Below, one piece after another: positions 33,001 through 36,000 of a stretch of 64,000 bases of DNA (positions are counted from its first letter, which is position 1; each line of letters begins with the position of its first letter). Source of the DNA: an uncultured Bdellovibrio sp. (GTDB lineage: Bacteria; Bdellovibrionota; Bdellovibrionia; Bdellovibrionales; Bdellovibrionaceae); NCBI GenBank assembly GCA_963932905.1, contig CAWVRN010000004.1, positions 144,384-208,383 on the forward strand, given 5' to 3'. The position numbers are program-made.

Positions 33001-36000
33001 GCATTAGACCTCGGCAAGCTCCCAATTTTTGCATCATATTAGGACTTCTGAACAGCGGATGTTTGTTTTGATTTTGCTAAATTCTAAAAAAGCACAAAAA
33101 ACGTTTAAACAACATAATCCAATCCGACGCTGATAAGTATGTTCAAGATTCAGTCGGAATGTGGCTCAGATTCGTAGAGTACAGGGACGCCCCATTCGCA
33201 GACCTACAAAAACAGAACTGAGCGAGGAAATCGGAAAAAAATATTTACCTGATGATTCAGAAACATTAAAGAATGCCTACTATACAACTGTCTTTATGAA
33301 TAACGAAGTTAAGGAAGTCATCAAAGTTATGGCTGGAAATCCATTATAAAAATTTCGCTACTTTCATAAAAGTAAATATGAAATTTATCTTAACCTATGC
33401 AATATTTAGCTTCAGTGGAGGATTAAATTTTATGGTAACTGTATCGCCAAAGCATCATCTAAGATGGGTTCAAACACGAAGAAATCTTTTAAAAAAGCAA
33501 TTCACAAAAGTGGTAGCCACCAAACTAAAAAAATCGATTGAGACTGGTGACTCCCATATAAAAAAACATCCAAAGTCCAAATGGACTCCCGCCACAAAGT
33601 CATATGTTAGTGGCCTGGAAAAACCAACGGTAATTAAAACTGATTTAATAAAAGACTTTAACTTAGCAGAGCTAGTGGTCATGTCCCCAAATGAAACCAC
33701 ATTAAGTATCGCTTTCTTTGCGCCAATGGGAGATCCCTTATTAATTTGCGATTTTGAGAAAAATAAACTGACGTGGAAAAAATTTGCTGTCTCGGAAAAA
33801 TCAAAAAAAGAAAATCAAGTCACCTACCTTAAAAAATTATCAGTGGGGTTAAAACGTCAAATGGGATTGACTCCACCCAAAAAAACAGTAAATCAAAAAA
33901 ATCTCCGCTTAAAGAAGCGTAAAAAATAGCGTCAAATTATCGATGACAATAATTTAAGAACTGGCTCCTTAGCTTGCGGCTAAGAAGCTAAATTCTATTG
34001 GAAAGACAGTTGTTTAGTTGAAATTTAAAAGCGCTGTCTTGAAACAGTTTTTCAAAAAAAAAATTATTATCCGAATTAACTCGTAATACATTCGAGTTTC
34101 GATTCCTCAATAAAGCGAGCGTGTTGAATCTTTCTGGATTTCAGATAGCACGTTTTAAATTCACTTGATTTGACGATATCTTACTTGCCCTTAGCCGCAG
34201 GCTAAGGGGCCAGTTCAAAGAGATTTAGCTGCAATGGATTCGTTCGTTCAAAACCTGAAAAAACATCCTCGGCAACTCAAATGCACAACGCAAGTTTCAG
34301 AAATCGGTGAAATTCATTGCCAAAGACCCATTCCAATCACACAATTTTTACGACAACCCATGAACCTAGATGCTGGGATTTAAGAATTCGGCCTTTATAC
34401 CGCCTATCCTCCCCTGCATCACATTTCCTGCCTACTGTGCAGATTGAAGGACCTCAGATCATGAGCGGATATTGGACAGACACAGCTTCTTTCATCGATG
34501 CGCATCTGGGCACTGGAGGCGCCGTCTGTGTGGCCCTGATTGACGACGAGATGGCTGCCCATAACGTGCCTTTCACAAGCGTGACCTGCCTTTATCAGGG
34601 CAACTGGCTTGATGGCGGCACGTTCAAGTGGGACACAGCGGCCGTAACACGATGCCAATTACCCGTGCCGCAGTACGCGATCGTCGGCGTCAATGGACAG
34701 GTGCAGTTTGTGGGCAGTGGCGACATGCACGAAGAACGCATCGCCGAGGGTGTGCTTGCCCCCCCGGCGGGCACAGGTCTGGTGCGCGGCGCACGCGCCA
34801 TCGAAGGTGTGCTCTATGTGTGCGGGATGAAGCGACAGGTCTTCCGCCGCGAAGGGCGCGAACAGTGGCGCTGTCTCACTGCTGCAATTCCTCAGGAACG
34901 GGGCGTTGTAGGTTTCGAGGCCATCGATGGCTACACCCACAGCGAGATCTATGCCGTTGGCTGGGAGGGGGAGGTCTGGCATTTCGATGGCACGAATTGG
35001 AACCAGTACGATACGGGTACCAATGTCATTCTCCTAGATGTGGTGTGTGCAGGTGACGGCATCGTGTATGCGATCGGCCGAGGACGCAAACTGGTCATTG
35101 GGCGCGGTGCCCAGTGGCGCACCATCGACCTGAACCTGTCGGTCGAGCTGTCAAGCATCGCCTGGTTTGAAGGCAAGCTCTACGCCTGCTCGACGCGAGA
35201 TATCTTTGTGTGGGACGGCTCGCTATTCAACCCTTTGGTGATTGAGGGTGACCGGCCTCGCACCATCCAATATCTGAATTCTGGCGAAGGCGGTTTGTGC
35301 GCTGTAGGGCCTAAAGATCTCTTCCGCTTCGATGGGTCGACCTGGTTCAGGATCGATTGAGGGTCTGGCTGGAACCACGAGGCACCCCACCTCGAAATAG
35401 AGACGGCAATATTATTTTCCCTGGCTTATTTGAAATATTGATCTTATTTCTTATTTTTTTTCGCCAGAGAAAACGCTGTCTCCACGAACTCTAAAGAAAA
35501 AGAACTACTAGCTAGCGCCCGAACACTCGATGACTTTTTGAATACCGTTTTTATTCAGGACGACACGGTATAATTGCATCTGCTTTTGAGTTTCGACACC
35601 ATTTTCTTTAGCGGCGTAGTTAACTAAGGCATAAAAATAATACATTTTATTCGATGTTTTACGAGTGAAGCGCCCTTTTTGATCCAAGATTGTAATATCT
35701 TTCATCGGGTCATCTAGAAACTTTAAATATCGCTGTAAATTGACTCTTAAGGTTTCTTGTAAAGACAAAGGATTGTCTTTGTTTTTTGTTTTTGGCGCTA
35801 AACAGTAAACACGTTTTAAGAACAACACATCCTCTTTCAAATAGGACTCTGCTTCGGATACCGATGCACTTTTACGACGATGACGAATCACTTCAGGCAG
35901 GTCCATTGTTCTGACCGTTTTAAGCCATTCTTTAATGCGACCAAGATGAGCGTCTTTATCAGTTAATTCATATTCAAAATCAGGAACGAATCTAGAAATT

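Follow-up and report, generated by a model that had tools for sequence, protein, structure and literature searches.

A foreign gene at the edge of an island of Rhs remnants

The gene of interest, encoding the 299-aa protein P0001, lies at the right-hand edge of a 15-kb island that contains Rhs toxin remnants. The island is contained in the window, the whole 64,000-nt stretch of DNA analysed here (Table 1), and is flanked by two conserved core genes. The right-hand core gene is 79–94% identical in genomes G001, G003, G006 and G009 (tblastx), and its relatives bear the labels Bdellovibrio sp., Bdellovibrionaceae or Pseudobdellovibrionaceae. The left-hand core gene, which in G003, G006 and G009 directly adjoins its right-hand counterpart, is 62–79% identical in these three genomes. 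Short GAACT repeats occur at both joints of the island, and no tRNA was found at its borders.

Table 1. Positions of the features described in the text, counted along the window.
Feature	Position	Strand	Description and basis
Conserved core gene, 369 aa	19174–20283	-	Left flank of the island
Strain-specific island, 15.2 kb	20323–35505		Between genes that are adjacent in same-genus G003, G006 and G009; tblastx synteny
Truncated tyrosine recombinase, 137 aa	20403–20816	+	Left end of the island; PF00589 4.4e-14, profile positions 44–166 only
Five further short Rhs core-end copies	21430–28058	-	Genome search (tblastn) with the Rhs fragment
Rhs C-terminal fragment, 498 aa	28651–30147	-	YD shell: PF25023 9e-29, PF05593
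MITE A, ~261 bp	33957–34218		Terminal inverted repeats AGAACTGGC...GCCAGTTCA; blastn against the genome
Repeat B, ~195 bp	34218–34411	+	Remnant of the 3' (putative oriIS-side) end of an IS91-family rolling-circle element
1.27-kb unit (repeat B and foreign block)	34219–35492	+	Present in G000-like strains, apparently absent in a ~97%-identical strain
Foreign high-G+C block	34412–35492	+	49-nt leader with GAAGGA motif, gene, 132-nt tail
Tsi7-family gene, probable orphan immunity gene	34461–35360	+	299 aa (P0001), predicted beta-propeller, G+C 0.588
Conserved core gene, 550 aa, no Pfam family	35508–37160	-	Right flank of the island; tblastx

The largest Rhs remnant carries a weak Tlde1-like toxin tip (PF10908 2.6e-06, below cut-off). 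Residues 318–376 of this fragment recur, at 66.7–74.5% identity, in five core-end copies (27906–28058, 27248–27394, 26397–26558, 25505–25639 and 21430–21582). Small ORFs, none with a Pfam family, follow each copy. This arrangement has the appearance of an array of Rhs toxin-tip/immunity modules that have been displaced, in which the small ORFs may be immunity genes. With the fragment and the five core-end modules in the island, and further Rhs genes elsewhere in the genome (on C1, C3, C11 and C44), P0001 could conceivably confer immunity to one of the genome's own toxins, such as the Rhs tip in the same island. We consider this highly improbable: (i) gene and Rhs fragment lie on opposite strands and some 4.3 kb apart, with the nearest of the other modules 6.4 kb away from the gene, (ii) RDD and GDSL genes, the MITE and the IS end lie between gene and fragment, (iii) the G+C of the gene differs from that of the whole island, and (iv) no GHH2-type domain was found in the six-frame translation of the genome at E<=10.

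The reading frame is intact, running from an ATG at 34461 to a stop codon at 35358–35360, with a Shine-Dalgarno-like motif (GAAGGA) 9 nt 5' of the start. Its G+C is 0.588 versus 0.376 in the flanks (the surrounding DNA is ~38%), and its GC3 is 0.67 versus 0.38–0.47 in five neighbouring genes. In 200-nt windows, G+C is 0.30–0.445 up to 34300–34499, rises to 0.55–0.655 over 34400–35399, and then drops to 0.455 and 0.38. The 900-nt windows of the 4.55-Mb genome have a mean G+C of 0.407 (sd 0.028); the highest value of all, 0.598, is found at C4:178539–180004, which holds the gene. Two other places exceed 0.54, namely C2:165163–166448 (0.56) and C31:22754–25022 (0.571); both lie inside long ORFs, and their identification as rRNA was rejected. 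The gene is compositionally foreign and recently acquired. One 16S primer site was detected in the genome, on C6.

The limits of the foreign block were set at the point where copies of repeat B diverge (left) and at the loose end of a contig from sequencing run X7 (right). A preliminary description of the locus had reported a sharply bounded, ~1-kb high-G+C gene of 299 aa, and this block is confirmed. The block is not, however, the bare insert that had been described: it sits at the edge of the Rhs-remnant island, fused to an IS91-family end.

Mobile DNA and apparent strain variation around the foreign block

Repeat B has a sharp outer boundary (...CCTATCCTC) that faces the gene; all 10 of the 10 aligned copies end in ...CCTATCC(T/G)C and are divergent beyond. 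The gene begins 49 nt past this boundary, on the same strand. Copies of repeat B are present in genus relatives, and at two loci (L101 and L097) the repeat lies directly 3' of an intact or partial Y2_Tnp/Zn_Tnp_IS91 transposase gene (for L101, Y2_Tnp 8.4e-27 and Zn_Tnp_IS91 2.4e-16). Because of this position 3' of tnpA in relatives, we take the end to be oriIS; the gene would then abut the oriIS-side end of the element in the same orientation. No HUH/Y2 transposase lies beside the gene, where only the ~195-bp end is left, and the IS91-type transposase elsewhere in the host genome (G000) occurs as fragments only. Repeat B also holds a conserved promoter-like site, TTGCCA-17-CACAAT, at 34317–34345 (a consensus match). 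An Rfam search of 33800–35600 returned nothing, by which repeat B was rejected as a structured RNA of a known family. The adjacent MITE A occurs 20 times in full across the genome, besides many partial copies at contig ends; the copies show no consistent target-site duplication.

The portions of PMC6218425 that concern ISCR1 state that captured genes lie against its oriIS side, from which outward promoters drive them. The present arrangement resembles such capture in that the gene lies just beyond the boundary of a region found 3' of the transposase gene in intact copies. It differs in several respects. Firstly, there is no transposase at the locus. Secondly, the tetranucleotide beside the end of repeat B is CTCN in eight of the 10 copies and CGCN in the other two, whereas the targets named in the published passages on IS91/ISCR elements are CTTG, GTTC and GTCC, with CTCG rare. 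Thirdly, what is carried is an immunity gene instead of one for drug resistance, and its capture is itself presumed. As a case that has nothing to do with drug resistance, the locus shows a gene placed at the capture side of an IS91/ISCR-type element.

The preliminary description had allowed for an assembly chimera, a concern that the metagenomic data dispel. Seventeen sequencing runs are listed for the locus, none of them RNA. Contigs from an independent run, X1, span both junctions (34190–34667 and 34640–35544) at an even depth of 6.5–8, equal to that of the flanks. The gene and its flank are present in two further studies (runs X5 and X6), and one allele (0–1 differences) recurs in runs of three studies. 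In addition, a public metagenome contig is 100% identical to the window over 7303 bp. An assembly or binning artefact, with the high-G+C block derived from another organism, would fit a genome in 58 contigs, the multi-copy MITE A 240 bp 5' of the gene, and a public contig that begins within MITE A. Against it stand the bridged junctions and the two further studies, the right junction, which is unique sequence, and the outer flanks, both of which match same-genus genomes; the chance of such an artefact is next to negligible.

The gene is also variable between strains, at least in appearance. Run X7 gives no cover over 34310–35420, and in an X7 contig starting at 35493 the loose end is the MITE A terminus GGGGCCAGTTC. 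A ~97%-identical strain in X7 thus appears to lack exactly the 1.27-kb unit, as judged from one contig of 2x depth with an 11-nt overhang. The unit has AAGA/AAAGA microhomology on both sides. The gene accordingly combines horizontal acquisition, a position beside mobile DNA and (in so far as the apparent X7 absence holds) variability between strains.

Membership of the Tsi7 family and the missing toxin

Comparison of P0001 with Pfam, NCBIfam and PDB sequences named no family; a sub-threshold KIB1-4 propeller and, by chance, chlorophyll-binding proteins were the only matches, and all were rejected. Protein searches yielded 85 homologues at E<=0.001 and 84 at E<=1e-20, the latter count (self included) agreeing with the preliminary description. 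The closest are 57–72% identical, and the best with an organism name 50%. The named homologues, again as previously listed, come from Uliginosibacterium, Variovorax, Leptothrix, Nevskia and one Planctomycetes MAG; one homologue carries the NCBI name Tsi7. In a 20-sequence alignment, the N-terminus of P0001 lines up with those of its homologues, and 21 of 21 invariant and 21 of 21 nearly invariant columns are retained. The N-terminus (MSGYWTDTASF...) shows, by eye, no hydrophobic signal-like stretch, giving the protein a cytoplasmic look. The structure model, a propeller predicted with confidence (pLDDT 91.3), matches propellers, all of them generic WD40, Kelch or lyase propellers.

The genomic surroundings of relatives point the same way as the alignment. 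Family relatives were found in genome contigs on 160 occasions, and the best 80 of these loci were analysed. A GHH2-type toxin domain occurs within the fetched flank at 58 of the 80, and the upstream gene is Tox-PAAR-like plus Tox-GHH2, or Tox-GHH2 alone, at 56 of the 74 loci having an upstream ORF. At the Tse7-Tsi7-type locus of Pseudomonas paraeruginosa (L018), Tox-GHH2 (4e-54) lies beside a family member to which P0001 is 39% identical over residues 24–299. At the other family loci, gene G+C is mostly within about 0.1 of that of the gene's own flanks. Full-length homology to Tsi7 and its relatives, as expected from the preliminary description, supports the assignment of P0001 to the Tsi7 immunity family. 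The gene does not lie directly 3' of a PAAR-like/Tox-GHH2 toxin as most members of the family do; since a missing toxin neighbour is what "orphan" means, this is no argument against homology to Tsi7. Nor is P0001 alone in this respect: 22 of the best 80 loci are orphan-like, among them all 10 of the 10 Myxococcota loci in the sample, which have no nearby GHH2 toxin.

A propeller of the same fold could also have been co-opted for another job, such as that of a binding partner within processes of the predator itself. Beta-propellers are versatile binders, the structural matches are of the generic kind just described, the Myxococcota loci are without toxin, and the genome holds a 27%-identical paralogue of native G+C. 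Co-option is nevertheless quite improbable: the family is tightly tied to GHH2 toxins, the gene is so recent that there has been little time for a change of role, and it has no conserved new neighbours.

In the tree, P0001 groups with its closest homologues (P0002–P0009) and a Burkholderiaceae MAG (support 0.91), and this group is sister to Uliginosibacterium (support 0.996). The sequence comparisons support high-G+C Betaproteobacteria as the nearest relatives with names. Of the acquisition proposed in the preliminary description, then, the foreign composition and the affinity to named high-G+C relatives stand. A metagenome scan for close relatives recovered nothing beyond the sequence of the window itself (L106) and a single relative at 38% identity. 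Among plasmids, 68 records match P0001, all at less than 60% identity; the matches listed (15 of the 68) are mostly replicons of 0.9–4 Mb and include no candidate vector. When P0001 was modelled in complex with the GHH2 domain from the toxin of Uliginosibacterium (alignments A1 and A3), the scores were 0.00, 0.60 and 0.00, which we weigh on neither side of the binding question.

Neither the toxin nor the machine that would deliver it was found in the genome, which is 98.6% complete and in 58 contigs, leaving some chance that a gap hides them. Profiles for TssC (PF05943), Hcp (PF05638) and Tox-GHH2 (PF15635) returned no hits; those for TssC and Hcp were detected in an E. coli positive control. 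The earlier claim of Tox-GHH2 absence had lacked a positive control, and one was added: a profile of 55 cognate toxin domains, which recovers the L003 and L018 toxins at about 1e-65, found nothing at E<=10 in the six-frame translation of the genome. Searches for a remnant of an upstream toxin gene, and for the usual 415–430-aa downstream gene in the 132-nt tail, gave noise only (best E around 0.06–0.1). The gene is thus, as had been proposed, without effector in a T6SS-less genome.

The same genome contains a second family member at C1:352195–353139 (g00329 in the preliminary description, confirmed here). It is 25–27% identical to P0001, matches the family profile at 1.5e-44, adjoins a tyrosine integrase and an HTH_17 gene, and has native G+C. 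This copy is older, and has been retained intact. In same-genus genomes, the gene was not found at the DNA level in nine, nor by family profile in four of four. Profile searches of other genomes detected a family member in three of 250 from the same order and a weak match in one of 78 from the same family. The reported absence from other Bdellovibrionaceae should accordingly be put less strictly.

A probable orphan immunity gene in a new kind of host

Tse7 is an H1-T6SS effector of Pseudomonas aeruginosa with a PAAR-like DUF4150 domain, and Tsi7 is its immunity protein. In the relevant portions of PMC9846239 and PMC11883445, they correspond to PA0099 (DUF4150 and Tox-GHH2) and PA0100, respectively. 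P0001 resembles PA0100 in family and length as well as in its 39% identity to the L018 protein, and belongs to a family that is mostly encoded right after a PAAR-like/Tox-GHH2 toxin, an order that these papers also give for tse7-tsi7. It differs in its setting: the host genome has no toxin, VgrG, DUF2169 or T6SS, belongs to a Bdellovibrio-like lineage, and carries the gene alone behind an IS91-family end.

Ross et al. reportedly described acquired interbacterial defence (AID) systems in 2019. Other work on this subject includes PMC12247911, PMC10470768 and PMC5361080. Our locus shares with orphan immunity genes and AID islands the missing effector, the horizontal gain on mobile DNA and, apparently, the strain variability. 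Unlike the AID islands of Bacteroidales and the immunity arrays of Vibrio cholerae, it offers a single gene and one distant paralogue rather than an array, and no intact recombinase adjoins it, the only one in the island being the 137-aa fragment 14 kb away. The host likewise differs from AID hosts: it has no T6SS and, going by the taxonomic labels of its relatives, is presumably a predator and not a same-niche competitor. The carrier, too, is of another sort, namely an IS91-type remnant in an Rhs-remnant island. Because orphan copies are common in the Tsi7 family, the locus is of an already described kind. The novelty claimed in the preliminary description was therefore overstated, the more so as family members also occur in two or three further genomes of the order that lack a T6SS. 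What is new is the occurrence of an orphan immunity gene, a known kind of gene that may serve here as a borrowed shield, in a new kind of host. The locus adds a lineage that is predatory by taxonomy to the hosts of such genes.

Taken together, the evidence makes the gene a probable orphan of the Tsi7 immunity family, acquired from elsewhere. By analogy with orphan immunity genes elsewhere, P0001 would bind and block Tse7-like DNases injected by T6SS-armed neighbours or prey. The donor may have been a high-G+C bacterium resembling Betaproteobacteria, and an IS91/ISCR-like element would either have captured the gene or settled beside it; the remaining end of the element may now provide a promoter. 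Several considerations count against this reading. As a rule, an immunity protein acts specifically on its cognate toxin, and P0001 shares only about 39% identity with the Tsi7 lineage that has been characterised. T6SS-armed bacteria, P. aeruginosa for one, have arsenals of several effectors, against which a single immunity gene would not suffice. Finally, the recent arrival of the gene and its apparent polymorphism among strains would also suit a neutral passenger.

This last idea, that the gene is a passenger or relic—a 1.1-kb scrap of a foreign tse7-tsi7-type locus with no role in the cell—is doubtful, yet has a realistic chance of being correct. Such a scrap could have come with mobile DNA, or been left after an IS91-type element had cut away the toxin. 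The gene was acquired very recently and has not ameliorated, close strains apparently differ in whether they carry the unit, and the island is full of broken genes (the truncated integrase, the Rhs fragment, and IS and MITE remnants). There is, moreover, one such gene and no array, and the proportion of orphan-like loci in the family indicates that orphan copies arise easily. Several features of the gene are harder to reconcile with a passenger: its frame is intact with every conserved column kept, it retains a ribosome-binding motif of its own, the IS end next to it contains a promoter-like site, and the cut is tidy, leaving a whole immunity gene and no recognisable toxin remnant. The recurrence of the same allele across three studies, and the older family member that is likewise intact, also speak against a scrap without function. 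Even as a passenger, the gene would provide a clean, datable case of recent inter-phylum transfer.

A broader and rather unlikely proposal goes further: Gram-negative bacteria would strike with their T6SS at the Bdellovibrio-like predators that attack them, and the predators would respond by collecting their victims' immunity genes. In the literature found, no paper asks whether prey turn contact-dependent weapons such as the T6SS on Bdellovibrio-like predators. An unameliorated, strain-variable Tsi7-family gene in a T6SS-less host provides a concrete handle on this question, consisting of one gene and one toxin family. Were the proposal true, the T6SS would be a real anti-predator defence, and the theft of immunity genes a counter-defence. 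The gene would have been lifted from a betaproteobacterial prey or neighbour via a resident IS91/ISCR-like element, and would be expressed from the end of that element. The orphan-only pattern of the Myxococcota loci might be the same phenomenon in a second predator group. Within the order of the host, several independent captures would have taken place: two in G000, and others in G073 and G192, each of which holds a Tsi7-family member in a genome without a T6SS sheath gene.

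Composition and genomic placement of the Tsi7-family gene

The Tsi7-family gene is an intact open reading frame encoding protein P0001, with a GAAGGA motif 9 bases upstream of its ATG; the P0001 N-terminus (MSGYWT...) aligns with the starts of its homologues. The composition of the gene is sharply foreign. In 200-nt windows, G+C content is 0.30–0.445 up to 34300–34499, 0.55–0.655 over 34400–35399, and then 0.455 and 0.38. The gene has a G+C content of 0.588 (vs 0.376 in the 1.5 kb on each side), rising to 0.67 at third codon positions (vs 0.38–0.47 in five neighbouring genes). 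Over the entire 4.55-Mb assembly, the G+C content of 900-nt windows has a mean of 0.407 (sd 0.028) and a maximum of 0.598, which is reached in the high-G+C block carrying the gene (hereafter the foreign block). Only two other regions exceed 0.54: C2:165163–166448 (0.56) and C31:22754–25022 (0.571). Each lies within a long open frame (at least 647 aa and at least 861 aa, respectively), and neither is rRNA.

The window is the final 64 kb of contig C4, and a multi-copy repeat lies just upstream of the gene. The main worry of the preliminary description, an assembly chimera, was not borne out. Firstly, Logan contigs from groundwater metagenome run X1 (study P1) span the full 3-kb stretch around the gene: one covers 34190–34667 with 0 differences and a second covers 34640–35544 with 2 differences, so that both junctions of the foreign block are bridged, at a depth (6.5–6.9) similar to that of the flanks (6.6–8.2). 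Secondly, two other studies provide runs (X5 and X6) that contain the gene (0–1 differences) plus flanking DNA. Thirdly, the outer flanks on both sides match same-genus genomes. The records of the latter are labelled Bdellovibrio sp., Bdellovibrionaceae or Pseudobdellovibrionaceae MAGs, and it is from this taxonomy that we infer a predatory lifestyle for the host. Fourthly, a public metagenome contig (L106) is 100% identical to 34055–41357; it may share source data with the assembly.

Run X7 contains a relative that differs from the window at 2–3% of positions in its flanks. Its contigs cover the left flank, MITE A in the same place and, from 35493 onward, the right flank, and leave 34310–35420 uncovered. 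The contig that matches from 35493 (one contig, 2x depth) carries eleven extra letters, GGGGCCAGTTC, which are the right terminus of MITE A. The simplest reading of this one 2x contig is a strain without exactly 34219–35492 (i.e., repeat B and the foreign block), a segment with AAGA/AAAGA on each side.

Repeats and the surrounding island

Features of the Tsi7-family gene region and the paralogue elsewhere in the genome (window positions unless a contig or locus is named)
Feature	Position	Strand	Size	Remarks
369-aa gene	19174–20283		369 aa	
Island	20323–35505		15.2 kb	
Short repeat	20327–20384			Left island joint
Tyrosine recombinase fragment			137 aa	Left end of island
Run of small ORFs		minus		Next in island; no families
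Rhs C-terminal fragment			498 aa	After small ORFs; weak Tlde1-like tip
Apparent module array	21430–30147	minus		Rhs fragment, five core ends, small ORFs
RDD-family gene and GDSL-like gene				Right of Rhs fragment in island
MITE A	33957–34218		261 bp	Terminal inverted repeats AGAACTGGC...GCCAGTTCA
Repeat B	34218–34411			
Foreign block	34412–35492			High G+C
Tsi7-family gene	34461–35360	plus	299 codons	
550-aa gene	35508–37160		550 aa	
Paralogue	C1:352195–353139 (L105:9196–10140)			25–27% identical; native G+C (0.407)

MITE A is present in 20 full copies in the genome at 94–97% identity; copies lie, among other places, at C4:79600, C4:43534, C4:51927, C7:85753 and C7:86020, and on C25 and C29. 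No consistent target-site duplication was seen among them. Partial copies are frequent at contig ends, so that MITE A is probably the cause of many of the assembly breaks.

Several copies of repeat B occur in same-genus genomes and in G020 (another genus of the same family), with 71–81% identity in the nine copies fetched. All ten aligned copies end in ...CCTATCC(T/G)C and are unrelated further out, and in two relatives the repeat lies directly 3' of the stop codon of a transposase with Y2_Tnp and Zn_Tnp_IS91 domains. This sharp shared end and this position mark repeat B as the terminus of an IS91-family rolling-circle element on the 3' side of its transposase gene, the side on which such elements have their oriIS end (PMC13181058, PMC6218425). 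IS91-family transposases in the source genome are fragments only (C32:42996–43224, C1:348383–348616 and C4:34682–34783). This Y2/HUH element (copies at 34218–34411 in the window, at C1:348343–348497 elsewhere in the source genome and in loci L097–L104 of relatives) is spread through the genus, mostly as solo ends of ~195 bp.

The foreign DNA starts at the outer boundary of repeat B, and the Tsi7-family gene follows 49 nt further, on the same strand. The layout is that of ISCR1, in which the oriIS side abuts captured genes and outward promoters in a 232-bp end raise their expression 13–15-fold (PMC6218425). The best conserved stretch of repeat B contains TTGCCA-17-CACAAT facing the gene, a match to consensus only (three promoter-consensus sites in the region vs 1.3 ± 1.3 in shuffles). 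Given this layout, the gene may be transcribed from within the IS91-family end.

The 369-aa and 550-aa genes are direct neighbours in three genomes of the same genus (G003, G006 and G009), which marks the intervening DNA, as judged by these comparisons, as an island specific to this lineage. Besides the Rhs fragment, the island holds five additional Rhs core ends (residues 318–376; 66.7–74.5% identity), which together with the small ORFs resemble an array of displaced Rhs modules, each with toxin tip and immunity gene. The Tsi7-family gene lies at the far right of the island, 146 nt from the core genome, on the opposite strand to the Rhs fragment and core-end repeats, and is the island's sole high-G+C part. 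More distant Rhs-like genes (~26% identical) lie on C1, C3, C11 and C44. The short repeat at the left joint is 83–88% identical to C17:77732–77789 and C13:78820–78884, and might be a recombination site or other small repeat.

Toxin linkage of the family and the orphan state of the gene

Searches of P0001 against Pfam, NCBIfam and PDB sequences named no family. A large protein search returned 85 homologues: the nearest (57–72% identical) are without names, followed by Uliginosibacterium (50%) and then Leptothrix, Variovorax, Nevskia and a Planctomycetes MAG. One homologue, from Uliginosibacterium flavum, carries the NCBI name Tsi7. The structure model of P0001 (20-sequence alignment; pLDDT 91.3, pTM 0.91) is all-beta and resembles generic beta-propellers (WD40, Kelch, virginiamycin B lyase; TM ~0.65–0.73), with no solved immunity protein among its structural matches.

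Function by association was assessed with one genome per species, keeping the best 80 loci of 160 relatives. A same-strand ORF ends just upstream of the family gene in 74 of these 80 loci; 56 of the 74 ORFs contain Tox-GHH2, nearly always behind a Tox-PAAR-like (DUF4150) domain. With a profile built from 55 such domains, a GHH2 toxin was detected within the fetched flank of 58 of the best 80 loci. Among these 58, the P. paraeruginosa locus L018 encodes Tox-GHH2 (4e-54) beside an immunity protein 39% identical to P0001. The same arrangement is seen in P. aeruginosa, where tse7 is PA0099 (DUF4150 plus Tox-GHH2) and tsi7 is PA0100 (PMC9846239, PMC11883445). This linkage and likeness make immunity to GHH2 nucleases a well-founded role for the family, and a putative one for P0001. 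A conserved gene of 410–430 aa usually lies 3' of the immunity gene in toxin-linked loci (L003:6918–8168, L016:6901–8157, L018:6789–8081 and many others), with the N-terminus ...H.EEAAFL..LR...V.APHY.L..L..LD.R..AHLDGL...; it was not found in the window.

Searches of the source genome (98.6% complete) for TssC, Hcp and Tox-GHH2 were negative, while an E. coli control was positive for TssC and Hcp. Since the absence of Tox-GHH2 had been claimed from a Pfam search without a positive control, the 55-toxin profile was run on a six-frame translation of the genome (40,832 pieces). Nothing was found at E ≤ 10, while the toxins of L003 and L018 scored ~1e-65; the claim is upheld. The Rhs module array is present though the genome lacks TssC and Hcp matches. 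The gene for P0001 is intact and foreign, and belongs to an immunity family; it is an orphan carried on mobile DNA, and its host genome is T6SS-less.

With an immunity profile, the source genome shows two clear family members: the Tsi7-family gene and the paralogue (E ~1e-44). At 0.4 kb, the paralogue has as neighbours a 377-aa tyrosine integrase and an HTH_17 gene, and a further repeat B copy with a transposase fragment lies 3.7 kb away; no match was obtained in four same-genus genomes by profile search. A third, weak match lies at ~337.6 kb on C1 (E 1.7e-05, in two stretches).

Origin, possible role and other carriers

In the family tree, P0001 groups with its nearest homologues (P0002–P0009) and a Burkholderiaceae MAG (support 0.91), with Uliginosibacterium as sister (0.996). 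Family-gene G+C lies within ~0.1 of the flanks in most other loci, and here is 0.21 above them, an excess that marks the transfer, on compositional grounds, as recent. The donor may fairly be taken to be betaproteobacterium-like. To call it prey goes too far, the best named relative being just 50% identical.

We favour, with moderate confidence, a defensive role as orphan immunity against GHH2 effectors. By analogy with its family, the P0001 propeller would act in the cytoplasm, binding the GHH2 domain of Tse7-like nuclease effectors and blocking DNA cleavage, and the selective agent would be T6SS fire by neighbours or attacked cells. The P. aeruginosa H1-T6SS, which delivers Tse7, fires upon envelope damage, a response that would fit predator attack. 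Against this role, a single immunity gene is of little use in the face of a multi-effector arsenal, the specificity of P0001 is uncertain at 39% identity, and so young a gene has perhaps not been lost so far. Alternatively, the gene could be a passenger without a role in the cell, which we consider rather unlikely; other roles are less likely still.

Bacteroidales and Vibrio are known to carry orphan immunity genes and acquired defence islands (PMC12247911, PMC10470768, PMC5361080). In the literature searched, we found no report of an orphan immunity gene in a Bdellovibrio-like organism, and nothing on the subject among the matches listed for the T6SS and resistance in Bdellovibrio predation; a review from 2025 on contact-dependent predation, in its passages on the T6SS, presents it solely as the predator's weapon. 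Orphan immunity genes as such being known, this one stands out for its unusual host and instructive mobile context.

Such an orphan is less rare than the preliminary description suggested. Among the best 80 loci of 160, 22 have no GHH2 toxin in the flanks; L015, from a Pseudobdellovibrionaceae MAG, is one of them, as are several loci of Luteimonas and Xanthomonas. All ten Myxococcota loci in this sample (L020, L035, L062, L069, L070, L071, L074, L077, L081 and L082), which are relatives rather than independent cases, likewise have none within the fetched flank, though these genomes may encode the toxin elsewhere. Among 250 further genomes of the order searched with the immunity profile, three have a member (G073, 2e-95; G192, 1e-39; G055, weak), and TssC is absent from all three. 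The L015 copy and P0001 fall into different clades of the tree, so that the family copies in this order look like separate acquisitions.
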